From contig CAVUBW010000026.1 of the NCBI GenBank assembly GCA_963739835.1, forward strand, positions 127,538 through 191,537: DNA of 64,000 bases, in the 5' to 3' direction. Within the stretch, counting starts at the first letter, position 1, and every line of letters begins with the position of its first letter. The translations under genes and the position numbers were made by a program. This DNA is from an uncultured Acidimicrobiales bacterium. Its GTDB lineage: Bacteria > Actinomycetota > Acidimicrobiia > Acidimicrobiales > VFJN01. Below, piece by piece: positions 2,587-63,009 of the stretch. Below the pieces are notes generated by a model. The model was not told the DNA's origin and made no database searches. It worked only from the letters and a program-made list of their open reading frames with translations.

Positions 2587-4443
2587 ATGGTGAGGCCTGG
2601 GGGCGAGACGCTGGTCGCCGCGCACGTCCACGCGTCGGGAGCGACCGTCACCGGCCGGGGCGGCACCGACGGCGACAGGCCGGTCGTCGAACCGAACCGG
2701 CCCCGGCTCGACGAGCGGCGGCTGTTCCTCGTCGCCGTCGCCGTCGTCGCGCTGCCCTTCGTCGTCACCGCCGTAGCGCTGATCACCGGCGTCGGCTCGC
2801 GCTACCTGCCGGCCGGCGACCTGGCCATGACCGAGATGCACGTGCGGGACATCGGCCACCACCAGGTGCTGACCGGGCTGTACTCCCGCCTCGACTGGAG
2901 CCACCCCGGCCCGCTGCAGTTCTACCTGGTCGCCCCGTTCTACTGGCTGAGCGGCCGCTCGTCGCTCGGCCTCGTGCTGGGCGCGCTGGCGCTCAACCTG
3001 GCGTCGATCGTCGGGATCCTCGCCGTCGCCCGCCGCCGCGGCGGCACCCCGCTGCTGCTGTGCAGCCTCGTCGCGTCGCTGCTGCTGACCCGCACGCTCG
3101 GGCCCGAGTACCTCGGCGACGCCTGGAACGTGACGCTGACCCTCCTGCCGTTCGTCCTGCTCGTGTTCCTCGTGTGGTCGCTCGGCGTCGGGGAGACGTG
3201 GGCGCTGCCGGTGGCCGCCCTCGTCACGTCGTTCCTGGTCCAGACCCACGTCGGGTTCCTGGTGCTGGCGCTACCGCTGTTCGCCGGGGGCGCGGTCGTC
3301 CTCGCCCGGCGGACCGGCCGCGGCTGCCGCCGGGCCGTGCTGGTCACCGCCGGGGTGCTGGCGGTCGTGTGGCTGCCGCCGGTGCTGGACGCGGTCATGC
3401 ACCAGCCGAGCAACCTGACACGGGCGTACGACTACTTCCGCGACCCCGGCGATGCCGGCCACTCGCTCGCCGAGGGCTGGCGGGTGGCGACCGGGCAGTT
3501 CGGCGCCAAGCCCGAGTGGCTCACGGGGAAGCTGCCGCCCGCGTTCACCGGCGAGTCGCCGTTCCTGCACGCCTCGCCCCTGCCCGTGCTGCTGCTGGTC
3601 GTGGCCGCGGCGGCGGTCGTGGTGTGGCGCCGGGGCCGCCACGGCCCCGGACTGGTGCTCACGTGGCTGGCGGCGCTCGCCGCCGTGGTCCTGTCGATCG
3701 TGCAGACCCCCGGCCCGGTCGGGGACTACCGGCTGCGCTACACCTGGGCGCCGCCGGCCGTCGCGGCGGTGATCGTCCTGTGGGGCGGCTGGCTGGCCGT
3801 CACGCGGTGGCGACCCCGCGCCGGCCGGGCGCTCGTGCCGGCGGCGCTGGCCGTCGCCGTGGCGCTGTCCGGCCTCGACGCGGTGACGGGCGCGCGGGCG
3901 GGCGTGCCCCATGAGGACGACGTCACGGTGGTCAGGGCGCTGTCCACCCCGGTGATCGACCTGGCCAGGAAGGTCGACGGGCCGGTGGTGGTCACGGACC
4001 TGGGATCGATCGCCGCGCCCTGGTACTCGCGGGCAATCGTGTTGCAGCTCGAACGCCGGGGCCTCGACATCGAGGTCGACCGCGACGTGCGCTACTGGTT
4101 CACGCCGACCCGGCAGTACTGGGGCGGCCGGGTCGAGGCCCGGGTGATCGTGGTCAGCGACGGGCACGTGGGCCGCCTCGTCGGCGTGGACGGCCTGACG
4201 CTGCTGGCCCGGTGGCGGCCGATCCCCGCCGTCCTGGACGTCCTGGCCCAAGGGGTGCTGGACGACGCCTTCACCAGCCACGAGGCCGGCAAGCTGAGCG
4301 ACGAGGACTTCGTACGGGTGGTCACGGAGGTCGGCGGCGCCCGGAGGGGCGCGCGGCCCCGGACGACCACCAACGACGTGGCAGTGTTCCTGGACGAGCG
4401 GCCGCCCGGCACGCCCCTGCCGCCGCCCGAGACCGACGGCTAG
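2587..4443 (+). CDS. large polytopic membrane protein, putative GT-C-type glycosyltransferase
   Basis: Track ORF, 618 aa. About 10 or more hydrophobic segments are followed by a soluble C-terminal domain. Function is inferred only from architecture; the start is uncertain. Confidence 0.55.
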   Translation: MVRPGGETLVAAHVHASGATVTGRGGTDGDRPVVEPNRPRLDERRLFLVAVAVVALPFVVTAVALITGVGSRYLPAGDLAMTEMHVRDIGHHQVLTGLYSRLDWSHPGPLQFYLVAPFYWLSGRSSLGLVLGALALNLASIVGILAVARRRGGTPLLLCSLVASLLLTRTLGPEYLGDAWNVTLTLLPFVLLVFLVWSLGVGETWALPVAALVTSFLVQTHVGFLVLALPLFAGGAVVLARRTGRGCRRAVLVTAGVLAVVWLPPVLDAVMHQPSNLTRAYDYFRDPGDAGHSLAEGWRVATGQFGAKPEWLTGKLPPAFTGESPFLHASPLPVLLLVVAAAAVVVWRRGRHGPGLVLTWLAALAAVVLSIVQTPGPVGDYRLRYTWAPPAVAAVIVLWGGWLAVTRWRPRAGRALVPAALAVAVALSGLDAVTGARAGVPHEDDVTVVRALSTPVIDLARKVDGPVVVTDLGSIAAPWYSRAIVLQLERRGLDIEVDRDVRYWFTPTRQYWGGRVEARVIVVSDGHVGRLVGVDGLTLLARWRPIPAVLDVLAQGVLDDAFTSHEAGKLSDEDFVRVVTEVGGARRGARPRTTTNDVAVFLDERPPGTPLPPPETDG

Positions 4444-7690: not shown

Positions 7691-8218
7691 ATGGACCTGC
7701 TCCAGCGCACCCTCGCGCGCTCGCCGACGATCGAGAAGTTGGTCAAGTACTCGGCCGCATCGGCGGTCGGTGTCGGCGTCGCGGTGCCGGTCCTGGCGAT
7801 CGCGTACGGCCCGCTGGGCTGGCTCGCGGCCAACCTGCTGTCGGTCACCTGCGGGTCGGTGCCCAACTACCTCATCAACCGCCGCTGGACCTGGCACCAG
7901 ACGGGCAAGAACCGCCTGTGGGGCGAGGTCGTCCCGTTCTGGGTGATGAGCGTGCTGGGCATGATCCTGAGCCTGTTCGCGGTGAGCTACGCGGACCAGC
8001 GCTGGGGCACGAAGCTGTCGGTGGTGGTCGCCCAGCTGGCGGGATTCGGCGTCCTGTGGCTGGCCAAGTTCCTGATCCTCGACAAGGTCATGTGGAAGAT
8101 CGTCCACGAGATGCAGCCGGACGTGGCCATCGACGAGGCCGAGGCGGGCCTGATCGGCGCCCTGGACATGGACGGCAAGGACGGCGAGCCCGCAACCCCA
8201 GACCAGGTGAGGCGGTAG
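7691..8218 (+). CDS. GtrA family membrane protein
   Basis: ATG 7691 within track ORF 7583..8218: [30 protein letters not shown]...[32 protein letters not shown]...[12 protein letters not shown]. Typical GtrA-like pattern with four TM segments. Confidence 0.8.
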
Positions 8219-8232
8219 ACGGCCTCGTTAGG

Positions 8233-8288
8233 CGCTTTTCGTCCCTGGAACTGGTCGCCATGGCGACCACTTCCAGGGACAAAACGCG
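8233..8288. repeat. ~55-nt palindromic repeat unit (copy E1), 9 nt downstream of the purL stop and 15 nt after the gtrA-like stop
   Basis: CGCTTTTCGTCCCTGGAACTGGTCGCC-ATGG-CGACCACTTCCAGGGACAAAACGCG. Arms are near-perfectly complementary. Related copies lie at 25305-25360 and 51561-51616. Confidence 0.8.
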
Positions 8289-20692: not shown

Positions 20693-22636
20693 TCAGTGGG
20701 GGATGAAGTCGCCGACCTGGTTGCCGGCCAGCACCGGGTCGACCGTCGTGGTCCGGACGAGCGCCTGGGTGAACAGCTCCTGGCTCGCAGGGACCGTCAC
20801 GACGCCGACGATCTGGAAACTCTGGCGCTCGCCGACGTCCAGCGTGCCGAGGTCGCACCGGACGACGTCGGGCGAAGGCGGGCCGTCCGTGAACTCGCAC
20901 CCCGGGAAGAGGCTCGTGACGTCCACGCCCGCGGGGACGAGCACGAGCAGGTCGGCGTTCTCGGCCGGGTCCGGACCGTCGTTGCGGGCGCCGGCGTCGA
21001 TCAGCACCTCGTGCTGGAGGCCGGGGCGGGCGACGATGCTCGCGCTGACGTCGGCGCCGAAGAACGACGCCGTGTAGTACTGCACGTGGCCGCCCGTGTC
21101 GGCGGCGCCGAGGTCGGTGTCGGCGCTGGCGAAGACAAGCGTGCCTGCCGGCGTGAACTGCGGGTTGGCGACCGACACCGGGCCGCCGCCGACCGCCGGG
21201 TCGCGCTGGGTCGCCCGGGTGGTCGTGGCGGTGAGCAGGTCGCGGACGTAGACGTCGGTGCCCGGCGTCGCGCCCGGGCCGAGGTCGGTGGCGGCGCTCA
21301 CGAACGCCACCCGCCGGCCGTCCGGGCTGAACGCCGGTGCCGTGCCGCCGCCGTCAGCGGCCGCGGTGCCCGCGGCGTTGACCGAGACCAGCGCGGTCGT
21401 CCCGGCCGCCAGGTCGCGCATGTAGATGTCGGGCACGCCGTTGGCGTCGGCCGGCCCGAGGTCGCTCGCCTCGCTCTCGAACACGACGTGGGTGGCGTCG
21501 GCGCCGAACCGCGGCGCGCGGGACGGGCCGTTGGCGGGTGCCGTGCCCGCGGCGTTGTCGGTCAGCCGCACGGTGTCGCCGGTGGTCAGGTCGTGCAGGA
21601 ACACGTCGCTGCGGCCGTCGAGGCGCAGGGTGAAGACGATCTTGGTGCCGTCCGGACTGAAGTGGGCGTCGTCGGCCGTGCCCGCCGTCGCGTCGATCGG
21701 CGACACGAGCGTCGTGTGGCCCCCCACGAGGTCGCGGACGTACAAGCGGCCAGACTGGTCGAACAGAGCGGTTCCCGGCACGTTCTCCACCAGGAGGCTC
21801 GCCTTGGACACGAAGGCGATCTTCGTCCCGTCCGGGCTCCACACGGTGGGCTCGAGGCCGATGCCGGCGCCCGCTGCGGCCTCGGTGCCGGCGGAGTTGA
21901 GCGTGACCAGCGACGTCGTGCCCGCCACCAGGTCGCGGATGTAGAAGTCGACGCCGAACGGGCCGTTGTTGTCGACCGGCCCGAGGTCGAACGCCGTGGT
22001 GGCGAACGCGATCTTGGTGCCGTCCGGGCTGAACACCGGCTGGAGCGCCGCGCCGTTGTTCGGGTCGGAGGTGCCGTCGCCCTTGAGCGAGACCAGCGAC
22101 GTCGTGCCGGTCGCCAGGTCGCGCAGATAGACCCGCCGGAGGGTGCCGTTGGACGGCGCACCCAGGTTGGTCGCGAGGCTGGCGAACGCGACCTTGCTGC
22201 CGTCGGGGCTCACGGCCGGCGGGTCGGAGGTGTTGTTGCCCCCGGTCACGCCGTCGGGGGCGACCGACACGAGCTCGCTCGCGCCGGTGTCGAGGTGGCG
22301 GACGTACACGTCGTCGAACCCCGGGTTGTCCTGGACGCCGGTCGCCAGGTTCGTGGCGGCGGTGGCGAACGCCACGGTCTCGCCGTCGGCGCTGACCGCC
22401 GGCGGCAGCTGCACCGCGACGGCGCGGTCGCCGGTGACCCGGCTGTCGGCGTTGCCGCCGGTGGTGCCCGCGGGGTCGACCGTGATCAGCTCGCGCCGCC
22501 ACGGTTGCGGCACCTCGCACGCGGCGGCCACCAGCGCCGCGAGCCCCGCGAGCGCGACCAGTTGCAGCTTGGACGTCCCGGTCGTGTCCCCTCCCCGGCG
22601 TGATCGGTCAGCAGGAAGCCGATGCTCTTGGTTCAC
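20693..22636 (-). CDS. PD40/TolB-like beta-propeller repeat lipoprotein with C-terminal DUF11-like domain
   Basis: C-terminal part of artefactual track ORF 20693..23608. Lipobox LAALVAAAC is followed by about 10 repeats of the type SPDG(T/S)K(I/V)AF.S.A.NL...D...DVY(V/I)RDL. Start proposed at in-frame GTG 22636; this is uncertain. Confidence 0.7.
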
Positions 22637-22715
22637 CAGGAAGTCGGTCGTGTCCGGGGCGCCCCCGGTCTCGCCGGTCAACAGCAGCACCTCTCCCAGC
22701 GTCGGTTCCGCCGTG

Positions 22716-22734
22716 CCGTGCCAGTGTGGCACGG
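22716..22734 (-). terminator. GC-rich hairpin 9 nt after the clpB stop (candidate terminator)
   Basis: CCGTGCCA-GTG-TGGCACGG, a perfect 8-bp stem. No U tract follows. Confidence 0.35.
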
Positions 22735-22742
22735 ATCGTGCG

Positions 22743-25240
<2,498 letters not shown>

Positions 25241-25269
25241 GCCGCACAGGATACAACCCGCTCACCAAA

Positions 25270-25290
25270 CTTGATAGTCAGGCACTCAAG
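25270..25290. promoter_or_regulatory. HAIR-type HspR operator upstream of clpB
   Basis: CTTGATA-GTCAGGC-ACTCAAG versus the published HAIR consensus CTTGAGT-N7-ACTCAAG (12 of 14 positions). It lies 30-50 nt upstream of the clpB start at 25240. Confidence 0.65.
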
Positions 25291-25304
25291 TTCGGACAGG
25301 CCGA

Positions 25305-25360
25305 CGCGTTTTGTCCCTGGAACTGGTCGCCAGAACGACCACTTCGGGGGACAAAACGCG
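25305..25360. repeat. ~55-nt palindromic repeat unit (copy E2), 9 nt downstream of the BY-kinase stop
   Basis: CGCGTTTTGTCCCTGGAACTGGTCG-CCAGAA-CGACCACTTCGGGGGACAAAACGCG. Same family as 8233-8288 and 51561-51616. Confidence 0.8.
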
Positions 25361-25368
25361 GGTCTGCC

Positions 25369-27126
25369 TCAGTTCCTCGCCGGGGGGGCCACGTCCCAGT
25401 CGGCATCGGGGTCGCCCTCGTCGTCGGCCCAGCGGGGCCGGCGACCGCGGCGGCCGTTGCCGCTCTCCTGCTCGACCGGGCCCTTGTGGTGGCGGGCGCG
25501 GGCGCTGGAGGTGGTCTCGTAGCGGTAGGGCTCGCCGCCGAACGAGTCGTCCGGGGACAGGCTGTTGAGCACCGTGCCGGCCAGCGGGGCGTCGACCTGG
25601 CGGAGCAGCTCGACCGCCCGGGCCAGGCTGCGCTTGGACGTGCGGTTGACCGACGTCACCAGCAGCGTCGTGTCGGCCATGCGGGCGAGGACCAGGGAGT
25701 CGGTGACCGCCAGGACCGGCGGGCAGTCGATGACCACCACGTCGTAGGTCTGGCCCAGCACGTCGATGAGCCGCCTCGCCCGCTCGCCGCTCAGCAGCTC
25801 GGACGGGTTGGGCGGCGGGTAGCCGGCCGGCAGGACCGAGAGGTTGGGCACCGAGGCCACCGTCTGGATCGCCTGGGGCAGCGTGACGTCGCCGATGAGC
25901 ACCGCCGTGAGGCCCGGCGTGAGCGGGACGTCGAGCACCTCCTCCATGCGCGGGCGCCGGAGGTCGCCGCCGACCAGCACGACCCGGTCGCCGGCCTGGG
26001 CGAACGCGATCGCCAGGTTGACCGCCACCGCGGTCTTGCCCTCGCCCGGTGACGGGCTCGTGACCTGCACGACCCGCACCTGGCGCTCGATGCTGAGGAA
26101 CTTGACCGACGTGCGCAGCAGGCGGAACGCCTCTGCCGCCGGGGCGTTGGGGTAGTCGACCGTCACCAGGTCGGAATCGGAGTCGTACTTGGGGATCAGG
26201 CCCAGCGTGGTGACGCCGGTGACCTGGTCGACCATCTCCTTCGACTTGACCGAGTCGTCGAAGTAGTCGCGCACGAACGCGAGCGCCGCCCCGAGGAACA
26301 GGCCGAACACCAGGCCGATCGCCAGGTTGAGCGGCAGGTTGGGGCTGACCGGCGTGTCGGGCGCCCCGGCGAGGCTGAGCACCTCGGCGCCGCCGCCGGC
26401 CGACAGTTCGACGCCCAGATCGACGTTGGAGAGCGTCCGCTGGATCTGGGCCGCCTGCGAGGTCAGCGGGTCGGTCTGCTCCTTGAGCGCCGCGGCGGTC
26501 TGCGTCCGCTGCGCGATCAGGGCGGTCGGGTTGCCCTGGTCGGTGGCGATCTGGGCGTCGATTGCGGCGAGCGGCTGGTTGATCGCGTCGATCTGGTCTT
26601 GGGTCTCCTGGAGCAGCGCCTCGAGCCGGCCCTTGGTCGTGTTCAGCCGCTCCTGGTCGATCGACTCGCGCAGAGCGACGTAGGTGTTGGCGTAGACGTT
26701 GACCAGCGTGGCCGCGGCCACCGGGTCGGTCGACAGCAGCGACAGCTCGACCACACTGGACGTGTTGCTGTTGTCCTCGACGCCGACCGGGCTGGCCGAG
26801 ACCCTGAAGATCTCGCCCTTGGACATCGAGCCCGTGTAGGCCTTGGCTACCGCGAACCGCATGCGGGACGACGAGATGAACGCGAGCTGGCTGCTCGCCT
26901 GGCGGTTGAGGTCGCCGCCGCCGTTGACGCCGAACACCATCGCCACCGGGTCGTTCACGCCGGTCGTGAGCACCTGGGCACGCACGCGGTAGCGGGGTTG
27001 GGGGACGACCGAGACCGCGATGGCAACGCCCACGCACACCAGCGTCGTGATGATCACGAGCCAGCGGCGCCGGGCGATGATCCCCAGATAGGACCGGAGA
27101 TCCGGCTCCTCCAGCGACGACTCCAT
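25369..27126 (-). CDS. polysaccharide biosynthesis tyrosine autokinase (Wzz-like domain plus BY-kinase)
   Basis: Track ORF, 585 aa. N-terminal TM plus chain-length-determinant region, second TM, then [18 protein letters not shown] (Walker A), [20 protein letters not shown] and a C-terminal YRYE. Confidence 0.85.
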
Positions 27127-27205: not shown

Positions 27206-27705
27206 CTGGCCGGTTGTCGTGGCTTCGGTTGGGTGTTGGCACTTGCGCGGGTGCTGGTCTGGCCCAGGGGCTGGTAAGGAGGCCGCCCGGGGGCGGCCTC
27301 CAATGTGAGTGTGGGGGCGGTCGGGTGGGCGTCAAGGACAAGCTCGCTGCGCTCGGCCGCCTGCGGCGGCTCCTTGACCCCCACCCGACCGCCTTTTTCC
27401 ACGCACGGTGGCCCTGGCTCGCCCCTGTTCTGGGGTCTCTTCGTTCTGGGTCGCGAAAGTGGTTGATAACCAACCACTTTCGAGGCCAGTTGCCCGCGCA
27501 ACGACTTCCCCCCGGTTAAACCAACGGTGTAAGGGTCACCGTGAGTGTCAAACGGGCGGTCGGGCGGGGGTCAAGGAGCCCCGCAGGGGCCCGTGCGCAG
27601 CACGGCTTGTCCTTGACGCCCGCCCGACCGCCCCAACAATCCCCAAAGAGGCCGCCCCCGGCGGCCTCCTAACCGGCCTCGTTATCGTTTGGTCGTTTTC
27701 GTTGG
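27206..27705 (+). repeat. ~0.5-kb structured repeat, copy 1 (core 27271-27676 with ~120-bp imperfect terminal inverted repeats)
   Basis: Aligns by eye with 36258-36761, with about 10 differences over the ~405-bp core. Hairpins: GGAGGCCGCCCGGGGGCGGCCTCC (27278-27301); GGCGGTCGGGTGGGCGTCAAGGA...TCCTTGACCCCCACCCGACCGCC followed by TTTTT (27317-27398); central palindrome GAAAGTGGTTG-ATAAC-CAACCACTTTC (27455-27481). Mirror-image hairpins lie at 27554-27676. Confidence 0.85.
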
Positions 27706-27871
27706 GGTTGGAGCGGCGACCAAGGGCCAGCCGGGCGCCCTCCACTAGCCTGGCCCGATCGCACTGGTCGCCCAGCCCTTCGGCGGCGGACAGCCGTCCC
27801 GGCCGTTTGCGCTGCCCGCCGGTCCGCCGGCCGAGCGGCGGCCACCGGTCGCGCCCCGCCGCCGGTCCCGC

Positions 27872-32889: not shown

Positions 32890-34083
32890 ATGAGGGTTCT
32901 CGTCGTTCACAACCGCTACTCGTCGCGTTCACCCTCCGGTGAGAATGCGGCCGTCGACGACGAGATCCGCTGGCTCGGCATTGCGGGCGTCGACGTGGTC
33001 ACCCACCAGGTCAGCAACGACGAGATGGTCGACGTCGGGCCGCTCGACCGGGTGCGCGACGGGCTCGGCGCGGTGTGGTCGGTCGCGGCCCGCCGGCGCT
33101 TCGAGCGAATGCTCGACGAGTGCCGGCCGGACCTCGTCCACGTGCACAACCTGTTCCCGCTGCTGAGCGCGAGCGTGCCGCTGGCCGCCCGGCGCCGGGG
33201 GACGCCGCTCGTGTGGACCGTGCACAACCGCCGGGTCCGCTGCGTCGCCGGGGGGTACTTCCGGGACGGCCAGCCGTGCCACCAGTGCCGGCCCGGCTGG
33301 CGGGTGCCCGGCGTCGCCCACCGGTGCTACGCCGACTCGCTCGGCGCCAGCGCGCTGGTCACGGCGGCGACCTCGATCTTCCGCCGGGCGGCCCGCCGCG
33401 GGGTCGTGCCGGTCGCCATCAGCCGCACGATCGCCGACTGGCTGGGGTCGGCCGGCGGGTTCGACCGCGCCGCCGTGCGGGTCAAGTACAACGGGGTCGA
33501 CGCCCCGACCGACCCGCCGCCCCCGCCCGGCGAACAGCGGCGGTTCTGCTTCGTGGGGCGGCTGTCGGCGTACAAGGGGATCGTCCCGATGCTGGCGGCG
33601 TGGCGGGCGGCGGACGTGGACGCCGAGCTGCACATCCTCGGCGACGGCGACCTGGCCGCCGAGGTGCGGGCCGCAGCCGCCGCCGACCCCCGGATCGTCT
33701 GGCCGGGCCAGGTCCCGCCGGCCCAGGTCGCCGACACCCTGCGGGCGAGCCGGGCGATGCTGGTGCCGTCGCTGTGGGAGGAGGGGTTCGGCCGGGTGGC
33801 GGCCGAGGCCCAGGCGTTCGGCCGGCCGGTCATCACGTCCGGGCACGGCGGGCTGGCCGAGATCGTGGACGACACGACGGGCTGGATCACCGGCACGTCG
33901 GTCGCTGCGCTGGCCGCCGCGATCGGGGAGGCGGCGACGTCGTCGGAGGCGGTCGACCGCCGGGGGGCGGCGGCGGCCCGGCGCCACGCCGAGCGGTTCA
34001 GCCCCGAGGTCACGACCGCCGAGCTGATCCGCATCTACGAGGACGCCCGCCGGCCGCAGGCGGCGTCGGCCGCGGGGGCATGA
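32890..34083 (+). CDS. GT4 glycosyltransferase (paralog 1 of a tandem pair)
   Basis: ATG 32890 in track ORF 32677..34083: MRVLVVHNRYSSRSPSGENAAV..VHVHNLFPLLS..C-x11-CHQC-x12-C..LVPSLWEEGFGRVAAEAQAFGRPVI. Confidence 0.85.
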   Translation: MRVLVVHNRYSSRSPSGENAAVDDEIRWLGIAGVDVVTHQVSNDEMVDVGPLDRVRDGLGAVWSVAARRRFERMLDECRPDLVHVHNLFPLLSASVPLAARRRGTPLVWTVHNRRVRCVAGGYFRDGQPCHQCRPGWRVPGVAHRCYADSLGASALVTAATSIFRRAARRGVVPVAISRTIADWLGSAGGFDRAAVRVKYNGVDAPTDPPPPPGEQRRFCFVGRLSAYKGIVPMLAAWRAADVDAELHILGDGDLAAEVRAAAAADPRIVWPGQVPPAQVADTLRASRAMLVPSLWEEGFGRVAAEAQAFGRPVITSGHGGLAEIVDDTTGWITGTSVAALAAAIGEAATSSEAVDRRGAAAARRHAERFSPEVTTAELIRIYEDARRPQAASAAGA

Positions 34084-34087
34084 CGCC

Positions 34088-35329
34088 GTGCGGGTCGTCG
34101 TCGTCCACAACCGGTACTCGTCGCTGACCCCGTCGGGCGAGAACGTCTCGGTCGCCCAGGAGGTCGAGGGCCTCCGGGCCGCCGGGGTGGACGTGACGGT
34201 CCACGAGACCTCCAACGACGAGGTGCTGGGCGGCGGCGTGGCCGTGCGCGTGCGGTCGGCGGCCGGGTCGGTGTGGTCGCCGGGCGCGGCGTCCCGCTTC
34301 GGCGCGGTGCTCGACCGGGCCCGGCCGGACCTCGTCCACGTCCACAATCTTTTCCCGCTGTTCACGTCGAGCGTGCCGGGCCGGGCGGTCCGGGCGGGCC
34401 TGCCGGTCGTGTGGACGGCCCGGAACCTGCGCGTGCTGTGCGTCGAGGGCACCCACTTCCGCGACGGCGCCGACTGCGCCGACTGCCGGGCGGGCTGGCG
34501 GGTGCCGGGCATCCGCCACGGCTGCTACCGCGGGTCGGTCGCCGGCAGCGCGCTGATCACGGGGGCGACGTCGATCTTCCGGCGGCTGGCCCGCACCCGC
34601 CTGCAGACGATCGCGATCAGCGAGACGCTGCGCGACTGGCTGGTGGCGGAGGCGGGGTTCGACCCGGATCGGGTGCGGGTGAAGTACAACCCGATCCCGG
34701 CGCCCGGGTCGGCGGCCGCCGTGGGCGACCCCTCGGCGGGCCGGGAGTTCCTGTTCGTCGGCAAGTTCGCCGTCTACAAGGGCATCGACCTGCTGCTCGA
34801 CGCGTGGGGCCGGGTGTCGGCGCCGGAGGCCCGGCTGTGCTTCGTGGGCGACGGCCCGCAGGCCGACACGGTCCGGGCGGCGGCGGCCCGTGACCCCCGG
34901 ATCGAGTGGACGGGCCAGCTCCCGGTGGCGGAGGTGGCCGCCCGCATGGCCGCGGCCAGGGCCGTCGTCGTGCCGTCGGTGTGGGACGAGCCGTTCGGCC
35001 GTGTGGCGGCGGAGGCGTTCGCGACCGGCCGCCCGGTGATCACGACCGGTCGGGGCGGGCTGCGCGAGGTGGTCGGCGACGAGGCGGGCTGGGTGACGGG
35101 GACCGACCCGGCGGCACTGGCGGCGGCCATCGACGAGGCGGCGGCGTCGGACGAGGCGGTGGCGGCGAGGGGCGCCGCGGGCCGGACGCGCCACGCCCGG
35201 CTGTTCTCGGTCGAGGCGACGACGGCGGCGCTCATGGAGCTGTACGAGTCCGCGATCGCGGACCCCGAGCACGGGGGGCGACCGGCGGGTAACATCGCTG
35301 AGGAGCGGGGAAAGCGTCCGCAGCGCTGA
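34088..35329 (+). CDS. GT4 glycosyltransferase (paralog 2 of a tandem pair)
   Basis: Track ORF: MRVVVVHNRYSSLTPSGENVSV..VHVHNLFPLFT..C-x11-CADC-x12-C..VVPSVWDEPFGRVAAEAFATGRPVI. Collinear with the upstream paralog. Confidence 0.85.
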   Translation: MRVVVVHNRYSSLTPSGENVSVAQEVEGLRAAGVDVTVHETSNDEVLGGGVAVRVRSAAGSVWSPGAASRFGAVLDRARPDLVHVHNLFPLFTSSVPGRAVRAGLPVVWTARNLRVLCVEGTHFRDGADCADCRAGWRVPGIRHGCYRGSVAGSALITGATSIFRRLARTRLQTIAISETLRDWLVAEAGFDPDRVRVKYNPIPAPGSAAAVGDPSAGREFLFVGKFAVYKGIDLLLDAWGRVSAPEARLCFVGDGPQADTVRAAAARDPRIEWTGQLPVAEVAARMAAARAVVVPSVWDEPFGRVAAEAFATGRPVITTGRGGLREVVGDEAGWVTGTDPAALAAAIDEAAASDEAVAARGAAGRTRHARLFSVEATTAALMELYESAIADPEHGGRPAGNIAEERGKRPQR

Positions 35330-35350: not shown

Positions 35351-36256
35351 GTGGATACGACCACCACAGCACGCTCTCCCGGGCGGGTTGCGGTCACCGG
35401 GCGCGGCGAATCCGCCGCACAGAGCGATGCCACGTCACCGTCGGTCAACCGGCCCCGGTGGCTGACCTCGCTGGTGGCGGTGCTGGTGGTGGTCGACGGC
35501 CTGGCGATGGCGGCCGCGACGTTGACGGCCAAGCTCACGGTCACGGGCGCGGAGGGCGCCGAGGTCCACATCCGCTCGATCCGCCTGCCCGACACGGCGC
35601 TGGGCCTGGCGACGATCCCCACGTGGCTGGTGATCCTGGCCCTGGCCGACGCCTACGACGTCGGCCCGTTCGGCACGATGTCGGGACTCTGGACGAGGGT
35701 CGTGCGGGCCGGCGCCCAGCTGCTGGCGGTCGTGGCGGTGGCCTACTACGTGCTCCACCTGGCGCTGGTCGGCAGGGGCGTGCTGGCGGCGGTGGTGCCG
35801 CTGGCGGTGGTCTTCACCCTGGGCGCTCGGGCGGCCGTGGCCACCGTCCTGCGCCGCGCCAGACGCCGCGGCCGAGCCCGCCGCACGGCCCTGGTCGCGG
35901 GATCGCGCCGGGGCATCGACGCGGTGATCGACCAGCTGGCGGATCGCCCGGCGAGCGGCATCACCCCGATCGACGCCCTGGTCCTGGGCCCGGACGCCGA
36001 CAACGGCAACGCCGGCAAGCTCCCGGTGGCAGCCGGCGACGTGGGCGCAGCGGTGAGCGCGGCGCTCGCGACGGCAGGCGCCGAGGCGCTGATCGTCACG
36101 GGCGGGCTCGCTCGAGGTCAGCTCCGCGACATCGCCTGGCGCTTGGAGGGCACGGGCGTCGAGCTGCTGGTGATGCCGGCGCCTAGCGAGCTGGAGGAGC
36201 TGAACGCGGACATCCGGCCCGTTGCCGGGCTGCCGTTGTTTTACGTCGAGCGTTGA
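35351..36256 (+). pseudogene. exopolysaccharide polyprenyl-phosphate glycosylphosphotransferase, N-terminal 301 aa only (catalytic C-terminal domain missing)
   Basis: Track ORF has four TM helices, then a Rossmann-like region (RRTALVAGSRRGIDAVIDQL...EALIVTGGL...VELLVMPAP...IRPVAGLPLFYVER*). In this family the Bac_transf domain (about 190 aa) normally follows at this point. Here the TGA at 36254-36256 is followed 2 nt later by repeat copy 2. Confidence 0.7.
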
Positions 36257-36257
36257 T

Positions 36258-36761
36258 CTGGCCGCTGTTCTGGTCTTGGGTTGGGTGTGGGCACTTGCGT
36301 CGCGCGCGGGTCGGCCCTGGGGCTGGTAAGGAGGCCGCCGGGGGCGGCCTCCAATGTGATGGTGGGGGCGGTCGGGTGGGCGTCAAGGACAAGCTCGCTG
36401 CGCTCGGCCGCCTGCGGCGGCTCCTTGACCCCCACCCGACCGCCTTTTTCCACGCACGGTGGCCGTGGGTCGCCTCTGTTCTGGGGTCTTTTCGTTCTGG
36501 GTCGCGAAAGTGGTTGATAACCAACCACTTCCGAGGCCAGTTTCCCGCGCAACGACTTCCCTCCGGTTAAACCAACGGTGTAAGGGTCACCGTGAGTGTC
36601 AAACGGGCGGTCGGGCGGGGGTCAAGGAGCCCCGCAGGGGCCCGTGCGCAGCACGGCTTGTCCTTGACGCCCGCCCGACCGCCCCAACAATCCCCAAAGA
36701 GGCCGCCCCCGGCGGCCTCCTAACCGGCCTCATTTCGTTTTCGTTTCGGTCGTTTTCGTTG
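36258..36761 (+). repeat. ~0.5-kb structured repeat, copy 2 (core 36323-36726), same orientation as copy 1
   Basis: Same hairpin series as copy 1; central palindrome at 36506-36532. The left edge abuts the truncated transferase stop. The right edge lies about 5 nt from the true hspR stop (36766). The tail carries TCGTTT-type short tandem units with a different copy number from copy 1. Confidence 0.85.
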
Positions 36762-36765
36762 TCGT

Positions 36766-37148
36766 TCAGCGGCCGCGGGTGTCGAACACAGCGACCGCCT
36801 GACGCAACGGCACGAGGTCGCGGCGGTACTGGCGGTGGGTGTCGGCCACCGCGGCGGAGGCCTGGCGGCGGACCTCGGCCAGCTCGGCGTGAGGCTGGCG
36901 ACCTCGGCCTCCAGCTCCAGGACCCGCGGCACGCCGTCGAGGTTGAGGCCCTCGTTGGTGAGCTCCTGGATGCGGCGGAGCCGGTCGATGTCGGCGTCGC
37001 TGTAGCGGCGGCTGCCGCCGCTGGTGCGGGCCGGGTCGACCAGGCCCTTGCGCTCGTAGATGCGCAGGGTCTGCGGGTGCACGCCGGCCAGCTCGGCGGC
37101 GACCGAGATGACGTAGACGGCGCGCGTGGACTCACGGGCGGCGGGCAT
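36766..37148 (-). pseudogene. hspR: heat-shock repressor HspR (MerR family) with one frame slip near 36,890
   Basis: [78 protein letters not shown] is in the track frame. After the slip the sequence continues [42 protein letters not shown] (own translation; stop at 36766-36768). Confidence 0.85.
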
Positions 37149-37154
37149 GGCGCA

Positions 37155-38322
37155 TCATCCATCCTCGACTCCGAGATGGGCGCGGGGCGAGCGGCCGTTG
37201 CTGGCCGCGGCCAGGGCCTCGACCGCCGCGCGCTCGCTCGTCGGTCAGCTGCGGCGGGCACCGCGACCTCGACGGTGACGAGCAGGTCGCCGGTGCGCCT
37301 TGGCGGTCGGCGACGCCGCGGCCCTTGCACCCGGAACGTGCGGCCGGACTGGGTGCCGGGCGGGATCCGGAGCGTGACCGGGCCGCCGTCGAGCGTCGGC
37401 ACCTCGACGTCGGCGCCGAGCGCCGCCTCGGCGAAGGTGATCGGCACCGCGCAGCGTGAGGTTGTCGCCGTCGCGGCCGAACAGCGGGTGCGGCGCGACC
37501 GTGGCACGTCGACGAGCAGGTCGCCCGGCGGGCCGCCGTTGCGGCCGGGACCGCCCCGGCCCTTGCAGCCGGATGCGCTGGCCGTCGGCGACGCCGGCGG
37601 GGATGCGCACCTTGACCTCGCGGGGCCGGCGCTCGACGCCGCGGCCCCGGCAGGTCGGGCACGGGTCGGTCGATCGATGCAGCCCCGGCCGCCGCAGGTC
37701 GGGCACGGCTGGGAGAACGAGAAGAAGCCCTGGTTGTCGTCGACCACGCCGCGGCCGCTGCACTCGCGGGCAGGTGTGCGGCGCGGTGCCCGGCTTGGCG
37801 CCCGTGCCGTGGCAGGTGCCGCACGGCGCGTCGCTCGTGAGGTGGAGCGTGGTGGTGAGCCCGCGCACGGCGTCGGCGAAGTCGAGGTGCAGCTCGGCCT
37901 CGAGGTCGTCGCCGCGCTGCGGGCCGGTGCCGCGCGCCGGACCGCCGCGCGCCGCCGCGCCCGCCGACCGCGCCGAACAGGCCGCCGAGCAGGTCGCCGA
38001 GGTCGCCGACGTCCTCGAACCGGAAGCCGCCCGGACCGCCGGGCCGCCGGCGCCGCCGGGCCGCCGAACCCGCCGCCGCATCGGGCCGAGCCGGCGGACC
38101 TCGTCGTACTCCTTGCGCTTGGCCTCGTCGCCGACCACGTCGTAGGCGGCCGAGATCTCCTTGAACCGCTCCTCGGCGGCGGCGTCGCCGGGGTTGGCGT
38201 CGGGGTGGTAGCTCGCGCGCCAGCTTGCGGTACGCCTTGGTGATCTCCTTCGGCGTCGCGTTCTCGGCGACGCCGAGGACCTTGTAGTAGTCCTTCTCGA
38301 ACCACTCGCGCTGCGGTGCCAT
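37155..38322 (-). pseudogene. dnaJ: chaperone DnaJ, frame-disrupted
   Basis: [38 protein letters not shown] / [18 protein letters not shown] / [43 protein letters not shown] / CPTCRGRGV / [19 protein letters not shown] / [11 protein letters not shown] lie in different frames. Own translation gives the true stop at 37155-37157, 6 nt before the hspR ATG. Confidence 0.85.
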
Positions 38323-38973
38323 CAGCCGCTCCTCTCGTCAGCTCCGCGTCGCACCTTCGACCATGCGCCGGCCGCAGCGACCCGGCCCTTCCAGCGGTAG
38401 CCGGTGCGCAGCACCTCGGCGACCACCGGCTCGCCGCCCTCGCCCGGCTCGTGCATGCACCGCCTCGGCGACGGTCGGGGTCGAACGGCTCGCCCTCGGG
38501 GTCGAGCGGCTCGAGGCCCTCCTTCTGCGAGCGCGCCGAGCAGCGCGGCCAGCACCGGCTCGACGCTCGGTCGGCGCCGTGGGCGACGCCGGCCTCGCAC
38601 GCGTCGAGCACCGGGCAGCAGCTCCTCGACGAGCCGGCCGCGTCGGCCCGCTCGACCTCGTCGTCGCTGCCGCTTCTGCGACCCGCTTGCGGTAGTTCTC
38701 GAAGTCGGCCTGCGACCCGGCGGCATGCCTCGAGGTACTGCGTCGCGCTCGGCCAGCAGCACTCGGTCGACGTCGAGCGTCGGCGCGTCGAGTCGCTCGC
38801 CGAGGTCGGCTCGTCGGCCGTCGCCGTCGCCGTCGCCGGTCGCCGGCGCGCGACGTCGGCCGTCGGCGACCGTCGCCGCCGCGTCGTCGGTGCCGGCCGG
38901 CGTCGTCGCTGGCGTCGGCCGGTCGTCCGGCGGCCTCGACCGCCTCGCGGTCGGCTCGGTCGCGGATCGCTCA

Positions 38974-38974
<1 letters not shown>
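38322..38974 (-). pseudogene. grpE: nucleotide exchange factor GrpE, frame-disrupted
   Basis: Fragments LAERD / [10 protein letters not shown] / [15 protein letters not shown] / [15 protein letters not shown] / [35 protein letters not shown] were recovered by own translation in shifting frames. The stop overlaps the dnaJ ATG (TGATG). The start is approximate. Confidence 0.75.
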
Positions 38975-42278
<3,304 letters not shown>

Positions 42279-48568: not shown

Positions 48569-48607
48569 CTACCCCTCCCGAGTTCGTCGAATCTGGTCCG
48601 AACCGTC

Positions 48608-48645
48608 GGGCCGGCCGGTCGACCCCCTTCGCGGCCGGCCGGCCC
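48608..48645 (-). terminator. GC-rich hairpin downstream of the thiolase stop (candidate terminator)
   Basis: GGGCCGGCCGG-N16-CCGGCCGGCCC, an 11-bp perfect stem. No U tract follows. Confidence 0.3.
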
Positions 48646-48667
48646 GGGGCCGGTCAACGTGTGCCGG

Positions 48668-50005: not shown

Positions 50006-50938
50006 TCAGACCATGGGGTGGGCGATGGCGGCGGGCGGGGTGCCGCCGGACGGGGCGCCCGTGCTCGGCGGGGTCGTGCCGCCGGGGGCCAGTGCCGAGG
50101 TGCACACGATGAGCTCGCTGACCATCGACCACGGTCCCTTGGCGGGGTCGCTCGCGCCGCGCACGTGCGCCAGCGCCACGACGTCGCCACCGTTGACGAC
50201 CTGCACCATCTGGTCGATGGCCGGGTCGCCCATGCGCTGGGACGGGTAGCCCCGCGCCACGCTCACGGCGTCCACGGGCATGTGCGCGGCGAGCGCGGCG
50301 CGCACCGACGGGACCAGCGTGGGCAGCGGCGGGTCGATCGGCAGGTCGACCAGGCGGGTCTGGGCGGCCTCGTCGCAGGCCAGCTCGGGCGTCTTGTAGT
50401 AGCCGGCGGTGTCGACGAGGTCGACGCGGCGCCGGTCCGGGATGCCGTTGACGATGCATCCGACCGCCAGGACGCCGGGCGGCACGGGCGTGCGCAGCGC
50501 CTGGGCGCCGACCGGCGCCACCATCGGGCCCGACGACCAGCCGTCGTTGGTGACCTCGACCTCGACCGGGCTGGGCAGGCTGTTCAGGACCCGCAGGTGG
50601 AGGCCGTCGCGCTGCGGGCGCACCGACGCCACCGGCACCTCGATCCCGGTGGGCGTGCAGCGCACCTCGACCGAGCTCGGGAACTCGGCCCGCGCGCCGG
50701 CCGGCTCGGCCGACTCGGACAGCGTGACCGACTCGTGCCTGTCGCCAAACCCGCCGGAGATCAGCGAGACGGCGACGGCCAAGCCCGCCAGCACCGCCGC
50801 CGTGGCGACAGCTCCACGGCGGCGGTGCAGCCGGCGGTGCCGGCGGGCGGCGACCCGGTCGAGTCCGTGCTCGGGGGGGTCACCGGCGGACGATGCGAGG
50901 CGTTCGAGGCGGGAGCGCAGCTCATGGTCTTCGCTCAC
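50006..50938 (-). CDS. single-pass membrane protein, putative anti-sigma factor
   Basis: Track ORF, 310 aa. Cytoplasmic N-terminus, TM segment AVATAAVLAGLAVAVSLI, then an extracytoplasmic domain. Its start overlaps the stop of the upstream ECF sigma gene by 4 nt. Confidence 0.55.
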   Translation of the reverse strand: MSEDHELRSRLERLASSAGDPPEHGLDRVAARRHRRLHRRRGAVATAAVLAGLAVAVSLISGGFGDRHESVTLSESAEPAGARAEFPSSVEVRCTPTGIEVPVASVRPQRDGLHLRVLNSLPSPVEVEVTNDGWSSGPMVAPVGAQALRTPVPPGVLAVGCIVNGIPDRRRVDLVDTAGYYKTPELACDEAAQTRLVDLPIDPPLPTLVPSVRAALAAHMPVDAVSVARGYPSQRMGDPAIDQMVQVVNGGDVVALAHVRGASDPAKGPWSMVSELIVCTSALAPGGTTPPSTGAPSGGTPPAAIAHPMV

Positions 50939-51560: not shown

Positions 51561-51616
51561 GACGTTTTCTACGCGGAAGCGGTCGCGATGGCGACCACTC
51601 CCGCGTAGAAAACGCG
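51561..51616. repeat. ~55-nt palindromic repeat unit (copy E3), 4 nt downstream of the hup stop
   Basis: GACGTTTTCTACGCGGAAGCGGTCGC-GATG-GCGACCACTCCCGCGTAGAAAACGCG. The outer and inner stems are conserved relative to E1/E2. The middle stem differs on both arms (ACGCGG/CCGCGT versus CCCTGG/CCAGGG). Confidence 0.75.
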
Positions 51617-51620
51617 AGGG

Positions 51621-52232
51621 TCAGCGGGACGACTTGCGAGCCGGCGCCTTGCGGGCCGGCGCCTTGGCGGCCGGCGCCTTGCGGGCGGCGGGGGCCTTGC
51701 GGGCCGGGGCCTTCTTCGCCGCGGTCTTGGTCGCCGGGCGCTTGGCTGCCGTCTTGCGGGCGGCGGCCGTGCGGGTCGTCGTCGTGCGGGCGGCGGCGGT
51801 CTTGCCGGCCGTCGTCTTGCGGGCGGTCGTCTTCTTCGCGGCCGTGGTCTTCGTCGCCGCCGTCTTCGCGGCGGGGGCCTTGCGAGCCGGGGCCGGCCGG
51901 GCCGGGGCCGGCGGGGCCGGGGGCCACACGCCCCGCTCGAGCTTGGGCGCCAGGCTGGTCTTGACGACCGCGTCCTTGAACCCCTTGAGCGGCGTGATTC
52001 TCGCCTTCTTCGACGCCTTGATGCGCACCGGCTGCTGGGTCTGCGGGTTGCGGCCCATCCTCGCCGGCCGGTCGACCTTCACGAACTTGGCGAAGCCCGA
52101 GATCGACACCGGCTCGCCCTTGGAGACGACCGCGGTGACGACGTCGGTGAATCCCTTCAGCACCGCGTCGACTTCCTTGCGGTCGACGCCGGACTGAGTG
52201 GACACCGCTTGGACCAGATCACGACGGTTCAC
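51621..52232 (-). CDS. hup: HU-family nucleoid protein with long Ala/Lys/Pro/Thr-rich C-terminal tail (HupB/Hlp-like)
   Basis: Track ORF: MNRRDLVQAVSTQSGVDRKEVDAVLKGFTDVVTAVVSKGEPVSISGFAKFVKVDRPARMGRNPQTQQPVRIKASKKARITPLKGFKDAV, then about 100 aa of AAKKTTARK-type repeats. Confidence 0.9.
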   Translation of the reverse strand: MNRRDLVQAVSTQSGVDRKEVDAVLKGFTDVVTAVVSKGEPVSISGFAKFVKVDRPARMGRNPQTQQPVRIKASKKARITPLKGFKDAVVKTSLAPKLERGVWPPAPPAPARPAPARKAPAAKTAATKTTAAKKTTARKTTAGKTAAARTTTTRTAAARKTAAKRPATKTAAKKAPARKAPAARKAPAAKAPARKAPARKSSR

Positions 52233-52421
52233 AGGCTCCTCCTAGGTCGTTGGAACGCGCACAGTTTCGTCAACTCGTAACGACCACACGCGGATACCGG
52301 GGCGTATTCTTACGAGTTTTGCTGGAAAATGCATCACCCTGAGCGCGATCGCGCCGATGGCGCCTAGGTTTTTCGCCCCTGAAAGCGACGGAACGTGACG
52401 CGGGGGCGGCGAACGCGGCGT

Positions 52422-62754: not shown

Positions 62755-63009
62755 CCGGCGAGCCCGAGACCTCGTTGTGCGGCTCCTGCAGTCGGCGGAC
62801 TTTGGACGATCCGCTGCGTGTCGGCCACCGGCTGTTCTGGTCCGCCTTCGCGGCCGGCGGCGGCGGCGCGAGCTTCGTGCCCGACGACTCGAGACGCCCG
62901 TCGCTGGTCGAGACGGGCGTCTCGGCCGGTGATGGATCGGTGGTCATCACCTACCACCGTGGCGCATCGCCGGTCCACTTCTGTCCGTCCTCATGAGCTC
63001 CGGCGACGA

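Follow-up and report, generated by a model that had tools for sequence, protein, structure and literature searches.

Three copies of a 56-bp palindrome, designated E1, E2, and E3 (Table 1), lie in a 64-kb stretch of DNA from an uncultured member of the Acidimicrobiales (contig CAVUBW010000026.1; 73.4% G+C). Here we describe these elements, the family to which they belong, and a nuclease gene that is bracketed by related hairpins in other genomes. We refer to the whole 64-kb stretch as the window. The initial annotation had reported the three copies at these coordinates, 4–9 nt beyond the stop codons of minus-strand genes that it took to be purL, a BY-kinase gene, and hup; all three copies are present there, the gaps measure 8, 8, and 4 nt, and Pfam agrees with the three identities. 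Thus, E1 follows purL (AIRS, AIRS_C, and FGAR-AT linker domains; stop codon at 8297), E2 follows the BY-kinase gene (Wzz/GNVR/AAA_31; stop codon at 25369), and E3 follows a gene for an HU protein with an AKP-rich tail (stop codon at 51621). A GtrA-like gene on the plus strand ends at 8218, 14 nt before E1, which therefore lies between convergent genes. A Clp_N-domain open reading frame (ORF) is located about 65 nt downstream of E2 on the same strand, and E3 is located upstream of a gene, likewise on the same strand, for an ECF (extracytoplasmic function) sigma factor.

The three elements are built alike, as had been claimed: a CGCG clamp is followed by T4, six variable bases, a 12-nt arm (GGAA-NN-GGTCGC), a 4-nt loop, and the mirror image of all this, down to A4-CGCG. 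The common 5′ start that had been proposed, CGCGTTTT, is not general, as E1 begins CGCTTTT and E3 begins GACGTTTT. It is correct, on the other hand, that the middle stem has changed on both arms at once (GTCCCT.../...AGGGAC in E1 and E2, CTACGC/GCGTAG in E3) and that the T-run pairs with the A-run within the stem. The right arm of E2, CGGGGGAC, creates one G·T pair and one mismatch, and the apical stem of this copy is imperfect too. Either strand of each element can fold into a stem of 24–26 bp with a 4-nt loop; the minimum free energies of the RNA range from −38.1 to −47.5 kcal/mol (E1, −38.1 for the plus strand and −43.9 for the minus strand; E2, −42.0 and −40.1 for the two strands; E3, −41.7 for the plus strand and −47.5 for the minus strand), with z values of −5.8 to −9.4 and none of 200 shuffles folding as well. 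When a covariance model built from 60 copies (R1) was run over the window, it recovered exactly E1 (68.2 bits), E2 (64.9 bits), and E3 (66.1 bits), with E values of about 1e-15. A possible fourth copy, which had been suggested near 52368–52418, falls away: its z values are −0.3 and +1.4, it aligns poorly, and R1 has no match there at E ≤ 1. A weak match to R1 at 27435–27501 (14.7 bits, E = 0.92) falls in a separate repeat, to which we return below.

The family extends well beyond the window. A scan of one genome per species with the pattern GGAANNGGTCGCNNNNNCGACCACTYC yielded at least 69 loci, at least some 35 of them from a single metagenome-assembled genome (MAG) of the Acidimicrobiales, CAWHNU01. 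The copies in this MAG match those of the window in type, having the CGCG-TTTT outer stem, and include both the CTACGC and the GTCCCY subfamilies. Among the matches listed, the other carriers were Ornithinibacter, Phycicoccus, Oryzobacter, Marmoricola, and Actinomycetota MAGs, in which the core is unchanged and the outer stem reads CGAGTGC, GTGAGTGC, GGCATA, or GACGTCATC; about ten of the listed matches were chance occurrences without a hairpin. The core arm GGAAGTGGTCGC occurs in genomes of Acidimicrobiales and Intrasporangiaceae and in one Sphingobacterium genome, in which two copies lie on a contig of 37% G+C. It is the 28-bp apical core that is common across orders and that is also shared with the hairpins flanking an AbiEi–DUF559 gene in the Intrasporangiaceae, as described below. 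Over the loci that we fetched, R1 detected about 70 copies. The earlier suggestion of a dispersed family resembling repetitive extragenic palindromes (REPs) is therefore supported by intergenic copies in many loci. Rfam contained no family that matched at the gathering score, only generic microRNA-precursor hairpins far below threshold; collections of plasmids, phages, and viral contigs contained no related sequence; and a text search of the literature for the 12-mers gave no match.

In an ungapped alignment of 60 sequences (A2), lineages differ freely at the outer 14 positions of the stem while complementarity is kept. Paired cells amounted to 85.5%, as compared with 73.1% in shuffles and 37–46% in slid registers; cells with double changes numbered 219, as compared with 88 in shuffles; and the covariation score was 0.342, as compared with 0.124, and was exceeded by none of 500 shuffles. 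The core columns of this alignment were set by the search pattern and are uninformative alone, but in secondary copies detected by R1 only, GGTCGC was kept and GGAA was mostly kept. A metagenome scan with the outer-stem pattern and the core left free returned just three unrelated matches, and our view of core variation is accordingly not an unbiased one. The 12-mer arm lay inside a complete hairpin in 115 of 137 near-exact occurrences, the remainder being mostly chance matches selected by the search pattern. This count led us to reject pairs of DNA uptake sequences of the kind found in Neisseria and the Pasteurellaceae, for which solo motifs are expected. Integron attC sites were also rejected, as these require RYYYAAC...GTTRRRY and cassettes in one orientation, whereas the arms here are GTTTTCT and AGAAAAC and the neighbors are housekeeping genes.

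The claim of compensatory changes in the stem thus holds for the complementarity of the arms but not for selection at the level of RNA. In 22 tandem contexts, G·U pairs numbered 16 on the transcribed strand and 21 on the opposite strand, which is no excess, and fold energies did not consistently favor the transcribed strand. At one dinucleotide of the core, copies have either GT, with AC as its partner, or the reverse, and the ten hybrids are without strand preference. Compensation demonstrates that self-complementarity is maintained, in a duplex or a hairpin, but not that RNA is the form under selection.

How alike the copies are indicates that they were copied or homogenized rather than evolved independently: the 56-mers are more than 90% identical across dozens of unrelated loci, whereas an orthologous gene is only about 69% identical between the window and the MAG. 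Moreover, orthologous sites can be filled or empty. The spacer between the CN_hydrolase and CopD genes is 32–37 nt long and empty in two genera (L033 and L073) and contains an element in two others (L077 and L080). Conservation stops at the foot of the stem, 27–28 nt to either side of its center, and no flanking motif or target duplication was found around the aligned copies. The last point bears on the idea that the element is a miniature inverted-repeat transposable element (MITE), formed from the two terminal inverted repeats of a DDE insertion sequence. Although two 26-nt arms in inverted orientation make up the entire unit, and the arm starts with GGAAG, which we take to be like the ends of IS5-type elements, we regard such an origin as highly improbable: besides the lack of a target-site duplication or conserved flank, the conserved part is apical rather than terminal and the outer stem is variable, the plasmid, phage, and viral collections hold no related full-length insertion sequence, and no transposase adjoins any copy examined.

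Some individual copies have features of their own. An element at L037:7598–7665 is chimeric, its left arm being of the GTCCCT subfamily and its right arm of the GCGTAC subfamily with the middle stem unpaired, which hints at recombination between copies or exchange of half-elements. In Marmoricola, three copies (L023:589–656, 672–739, and 1116–1183) bracket a gene of about 113 aa; the first and the last of these share 14 nt of 5′ flank (CTGCCCTGCCGCCC), and hence the repeated unit in Marmoricola is longer than the hairpin and asymmetric. In Sphingobacterium daejeonense, inverted copies of about 600 bp (L005:1068–1623 and 3461–4065; 79% identity) contain several types of palindromic unit, including GC-rich hairpins with the actinobacterial core, and bracket a cupin gene and a zinc-ribbon gene (DUF1062-like, as judged by eye).

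We next consider position relative to genes, which were called in the loci with a home-made codon-usage caller that was trained on those same loci and is imperfect at frame shifts. The copies that could be classified, 61 in all, were compared with 227 intergenic gaps of at least 50 nt from the same loci. Thirty copies were found between convergent genes, 26 between tandem genes, and five between divergent genes, the corresponding numbers of background gaps being 44, 121, and 62; the convergent class thus makes up 49% of the copies and 19% of the gaps (chi-square, p = 3e-6). A stop codon was present within 60 nt of the center in 50 of the 61 copies. The distance from a facing stop codon to the center of the hairpin had a median of 38.5 nt, or about 10 nt from the foot (interquartile range, 32–52 nt), whereas that from a facing start codon to the copy had a median of 102 nt. 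These results agree with the bias toward the 3′ ends of genes that the initial annotation had predicted; the family shows both this bias and covariation, and absence of the two would have told against the prediction. Some copies do lie in divergent promoter regions (L033 and L043), and one is 12 nt from a start codon.

Placement behind genes raises the question of termination. As the initial annotation had recognized, the elements are not canonical intrinsic terminators, that is, GC-rich hairpins followed immediately by a U-tract of 7–9 nt. They have no U-tract, since on either strand A4 forms the 3′ part of the stem and is followed by sequence other than U, and a terminator scan of the E1 region did not return E1. 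On both strands the T-run is on the 5′ side of the stem and the A-run on the 3′ side, the inverse of a bidirectional intrinsic terminator. Between positions 1 and 20000 of the window, canonical terminator-like sites numbered four, as compared with 2.2 ± 1.6 expected, which is the chance level.

Hairpins without a U-tail have nonetheless been described behind actinobacterial genes. In Mycobacterium, about 150 copies of the TRIT (Tuberculosis Rho-independent terminator) motif are linked to stop codons and mostly bidirectional, and its discoverers suspected a factor that reads the double-stranded motif (PMC3152330). Term-seq in Streptomyces showed that a U-tract was absent from 353 of 535 highly structured 3′ ends (PMC8269248). 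By its published description, TRIT is much like the elements considered here, being a conserved, U-tail-less, palindromic actinobacterial hairpin that is tight to stop codons and mostly bidirectional; in the Intrasporangiaceae copies the stop codon can even lie within the arm (TGAGTGC), as it does in TRIT at about −8. It differs in having been reported from Mycobacterium only (PMC3152330; the comparison made here is with the description), in that the window copies begin 4–8 nt after the stop codon without overlap, and in that no associated gene has been described for it. The I-shaped terminators and U-lacking 3′ ends of Streptomyces (PMC8269248) are similarly GC-rich, stable hairpins right after the stop codon that have no U-tract, but each is unique to its gene, whereas here a single repeated family has a conserved core.

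These precedents would favor a purely RNA-level role for the copies, as factor-assisted, tail-less terminators or TRIT-like stabilizers of mRNA 3′ ends, with an RNA-binding factor reading the stem and the link to a nuclease (see below) being incidental. Tight placement after stop codons, enrichment between convergent genes, great stability on both strands, and the lack of any excess of canonical terminators over the chance level across 20 kb of the window all fit such a role. So does a comparison of two orthologous post-stop sites, one of which holds an element of the family (L034:5421–5476) and the other an unrelated perfect palindrome (L050:7595–7662, GAACGTGGGTGAAGAACGTCG-CGATA-...), suggesting that a hairpin as such is wanted there; the latter site also has an inserted methyltransferase-like gene on the opposite strand. 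We consider a role confined to RNA unlikely, however. Near-identity of the 56-mers in the face of diverged orthologs calls for a copying mechanism and not convergence, the transcribed strand lacks an excess of G·U pairs, the U-run precedes and the A-run follows the stem, and copies are present in divergent promoter regions and 12 nt upstream of a start codon. In M. tuberculosis, moreover, predicted TRITs overlap few mapped 3′ ends (bioRxiv 10.1101/2022.06.01.494293). Finally, hairpins bracket one gene family on both flanks, in five contexts and far above the background density of hairpins.

That gene was first seen in two syntenic loci of the Intrasporangiaceae (L033 and L043), in which an ORF of about 300 aa has one or two elements on each side. 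A distant homolog in a MAG of the Acidimicrobiales (L036) has an element just upstream (972–1030), and a solo copy at a distance of 1.5 kb from this element (2498–2551) is of matching type. Further homologs were gathered by protein similarity alone, after which their contigs were fetched, and at every locus of the first protein subfamily the ORF was bracketed by two similar hairpins. The upstream hairpin ends about 55–100 nt before the start codon; the downstream hairpin starts at the stop codon or overlaps it, often by way of the TGA of TGAGTGC. The gene contexts are five and unrelated: GlcD/CN_hydrolase (in the Intrasporangiaceae), pntB/pabB, yjeF/acpS, upp/pntB, and an unknown gene/ACT-domain gene. 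By the criterion of a uniform hairpin definition, 10 hairpins were present in 3.5 kb of sequence flanking the ORF, as compared with 16 in about 59 kb elsewhere.

Within a locus the paired flanking hairpins are nearly identical (20 of 20 positions in L076, 17 of 18 in L077, and 21 of 24 in L088, with identical arms in L078 and L080), whereas their apical 12 nt differ by lineage (GGAAGTGG, TGAAGTGG / TCAGGTGG, TGAGGTGG, TCAGGCGG, and CCCTCGACGCGC); hence the two flanking hairpins change together. R1 assigned scores of 48–53 bits to the flanking hairpins of L074 and L080. In addition, the flanking type is the solo type of the same genus in Oryzobacter (L043 as compared with L032), Ornithinibacter (L080 as compared with L059 and L068), and Phycicoccus (L033 as compared with L039 and L054). 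A sister protein subfamily, found in a uvrB/coaE context, has two tandem, lineage-specific hairpins on the upstream side only. Every AbiEi–DUF559 gene examined, in both subfamilies, has a conserved box 5–15 nt after the upstream hairpin and about 45 nt before the start of the ORF (Table 1); this box might belong to a promoter, form half of an operator, or mark a site of cleavage.

The product of the gene is predicted, from domain matches and a structural model, to consist of an AbiEi-type, DNA-binding winged-helix module fused to a nuclease domain with a DUF559/Vsr-like restriction-endonuclease fold. Matches to Pfam among 13 members were weak but consistent (DUF559 in ten, AbiEi_4 in six, and MTES_1575 in five), and the sister subfamily has all three domains at normal significance (PF13338, PF04480, and PF18741); the two subfamilies are homologous, as judged by BLASTP (E = 1e-10). 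An AlphaFold model had a pLDDT (predicted local distance difference test) of 93.7. Foldseek matched its first 190 or so residues to the AbiEi antitoxin (6y8q, E = 5e-5) and Rv2827c (1zel), and its last 100 or so to the DUF559-like protein NGO0050 (3hrl), the Vsr-like homing endonuclease I-Bth0305I (3r3p), and the endonuclease domain of the R2 retrotransposon. Across 42 sequences, the motif E-x-D-x3-H and two additional Asp residues do not vary. In titles and abstracts of the literature naming DUF559, we found no link to repeats. The likeness to free-standing homing endonucleases of the Vsr-like (EDxHD) type, such as I-Bth0305I (PMC3239194), and to the R2 domain is one of structure and extends to the occurrence of the gene in different housekeeping contexts in different genera; the present gene differs in lying outside any intron or intein and in being bracketed by palindromes that also exist solo, and its nuclease is a predicted one.

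With this gene in hand, the closest parallel is with the REPs and REPINs of Enterobacteria, Pseudomonas, and Stenotrophomonas. Like these, the elements are short, multi-copy extragenic palindromes (three in the window and at least about 35 loci in one MAG) with a bias toward 3′ ends and convergent genes, changes on both arms of the stem, occasional tandem pairs, a single protein-coding gene that is bracketed by repeat copies, and a plausible secondary use as hairpins at mRNA 3′ ends. They differ from REPs in several respects, and the differences make it improbable, in our view, that this is a classical REP/REPIN family moved by a REP-associated tyrosine transposase (RAYT, of the Y1 HUH type) encoded elsewhere, the AbiEi–DUF559 gene being a frequent neighbor or landing site. 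Such a family would account for the extragenic location, the 3′-end and convergent bias, the compensated stems, and the tandem pairs (L023, L033, and L043), and GTAG/CTAC, a REP hallmark, does occur within the stem of one subfamily, that of E3. But the tetranucleotide is found only in mid-stem there, is absent from the GTCCCY and Intrasporangiaceae types, and is never at the 5′ foot; the stems are nearly perfect and, at 24–26 bp, twice as long as the 10–12 bp of REPs; it is the hairpin apex that is conserved, and this part is common across orders; and the bracketed gene encodes an AbiEi-like module with a DUF559/Vsr-like PD-(D/E)xK nuclease, a fold different from that of the Y1 HUH transposase (PF01797). 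In a tblastn search with IS608 TnpA, IS200 TnpA, and E. coli YafM, nothing was found at E < 0.05 in 650 kb, a weak test given that the search covered a small part of each genome.

AbiEi itself offers another comparison. In type IV abiE toxin–antitoxin systems (PMC7319586 and PMC3985639), as here, palindromes are found singly or in pairs just upstream, and the N-terminal 190 residues of our protein are AbiEi-like; here, however, there is no AbiEii toxin partner, a nuclease domain occupies the C terminus, and palindromes are also located after the stop codon and scattered over the genome behind unrelated genes. The hairpins might accordingly be immobile, as dispersed double-stranded DNA sites of an AbiEi-like regulator or as remnants of recombination at a hairpin-flanked gene, in the manner of solo long terminal repeats. 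In support of such an account, the promoters from which AbiEi proteins are expressed contain inverted repeats that these proteins bind (PMC7319586), the gene is closely preceded by tandem palindromes in both subfamilies, and recombination between similar palindromic flanks would leave one solo copy. This account is, we think, rather improbable, in that the sites follow the stop codons of unrelated housekeeping genes and are not in promoters, in that a conserved nuclease active site would be superfluous for a pure regulator, and in that 35 or more solo copies, set against no copy of the gene in the sampled 280 kb of one MAG, would require equally many independent insertions and deletions of the gene.

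The explanation that we prefer, and to which we give an even chance of being right, is that E1–E3 belong to a REP-like dispersed family of palindromes of about 56 bp in high-GC Actinomycetota that is tied to a nuclease other than a RAYT. Because AbiEi proteins bind inverted repeats, the AbiEi–DUF559 protein would recognize the palindrome. Its nuclease domain would nick at or near the palindrome, an event from which the hairpin would be copied into further sites; E1–E3 and other solo hairpins would be the non-autonomous progeny, and copies would persist only where they are harmless, just past stop codons. When transcribed, the stem of 24–26 bp may act as a tail-less 3′ hairpin in either direction, which would block 3′-to-5′ exonucleases or mark a processed 3′ end after factor-dependent termination. 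A role of this kind is plausible by analogy: REPs serve as 3′ hairpins in E. coli. Going further, and more tentatively, the hairpins and the AbiEi–DUF559 gene could together form an undescribed two-part system, parallel to RAYT and REP, in which the nuclease, binding the palindrome in a sequence-specific manner, spreads and maintains solo palindromes at the 3′ ends of genes across the Actinomycetota; we hold this to be possible but somewhat doubtful, and would say the same of its corollary that the nuclease is usually present in one copy per genome, bracketed by its own palindromes.

Several observations weigh against the preferred explanation. The nuclease gene was not found by profile in the window or in the roughly 35 CAWHNU01 loci (280 kb), so that the shared core and L036 are what connects it to E1–E3. 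In Sphingobacterium, the copies of the core are without an AbiEi–DUF559 gene in the 8 kb seen. The upstream hairpins of the sister subfamily could be autoregulatory operators, and the flanking hairpins in general need not be the ends of an element but might instead be operators, duplicated target sequence, or favored sites of insertion. The positional counts depend on the imperfect gene caller mentioned above, and the lack of a G·U excess and the presence of an A-run instead of a U-run at the 3′ end of the stem count against the proposed role in RNA.

The window has other repeats and palindromes. A second, highly structured repeat family of about 410–440 bp is present at 27269–27709 and 36321–36760 and also in CAWHNU01 (L010:1793–2227); identity is 93% between the two window copies and 87% between these and the copy in the MAG. 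Its inverted repeats are nested (arms of 57–77 nt, 23–31 nt, and 17 nt), and its central hairpin has an arm, GAAAGTGGTTG, that is similar to the core of the 56-bp elements. This second repeat may represent either a MITE-like element or a gene for a structured RNA. Strong but unique intergenic palindromes outside the family, with stems of 14–19 bp, are located at 48607–48646, 50785–50834, and 62890–62924, and intergenic hairpins are therefore general in the source genome. The plus-strand genes at 32891–34028 and 34089–35235 are adjacent paralogs, 69.6% identical over about 1.15 kb, that represent a tandem duplication. Internal DNA repeats at 21222–22405 (units of about 270–430 nt, 67–72% identity) suggest that the minus-strand ORF in which they lie (20693–23608) encodes a repeat-domain protein.

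As to the genes near the elements, the HU-family protein (51621–52232) is 203 aa long, has a C-terminal tail of about 110 aa composed of Ala/Lys/Pro repeats, and matches Bac_DNA_binding and, weakly, the histone-H1-like HC2 family in Pfam. Such an Ala/Lys/Pro tail on HU is typical of Actinomycetota. Downstream of E2, two minus-strand ORFs with a Clp_N domain (24374–25240) and an AAA-lid domain (23358–24536) overlap in different frames, which suggests a frameshift in a clpC/clpB-like gene (23358–25240), possibly a sequencing error in a long-read MAG. The codon-usage gene caller left gaps in the window at 23182–25369 and 36256–41004.

Table 1. Coordinates and character of the elements and related features (positions are those of the window unless a locus is named)
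Feature	Position	Description	Remarks
E1	8233..8288	56-bp palindrome, GTCCCT/AGGGAC subfamily	Core GGAACTGGTCGC-CATG-GCGACCACTTCC
E2	25305..25360	56-bp palindrome, E1 subfamily	Two stem imperfections; imperfect apex GGTCGCCAGAACGACC
E3	51561..51616	56-bp palindrome, CTACGC/GCGTAG subfamily	Minus-strand stem all paired, including two G·U
28-bp apical core	E1 8247..8274; E2 25319–25346; E3 51575–51602	12-nt arm, 4-nt variable loop, 12-nt arm	
Proposed fourth copy	52368..52418	Outside the family	Fold no better than shuffles, poor alignment, no R1 match
Central hairpin of the separate ~410-bp repeat	27449..27487	Possible distant relative only; GGTCGCGAAAGTGGTTG-ATAAC-CAACCACTTTCGAGGCC	Arm resembles family core
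Box CTGTGGA(G/C)RA	L033:2870–2913, L043, L073, L074, L076, L077, L078, L080, L088, L089; L036:1048–1056		

The repeat family by itself is ordinary; what would surprise is the consistent bracketing of the AbiEi–DUF559 nuclease gene. Most REP-like repeats known to date are those of Proteobacteria, in which RAYT transposases are linked to them, and neither the origin nor the reader of the tail-less hairpins that follow genes in high-GC Actinomycetota (TRIT and the I-shaped "terminators") is known. If the link to the nuclease holds, it would represent a second, independent route to a genome-wide population of REP-like repeats, an abundant but uncharacterized protein family would gain a role, and the role of the tail-less actinobacterial hairpins would become testable in cultured Phycicoccus, Oryzobacter, and Ornithinibacter. 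For annotation, the elements mark the 3′ ends of genes and can be detected with a small covariance model. The two-part system, if true, would provide a function for a large family of DUF559 and AbiEi-domain proteins and might explain the TRIT motifs of mycobacteria.

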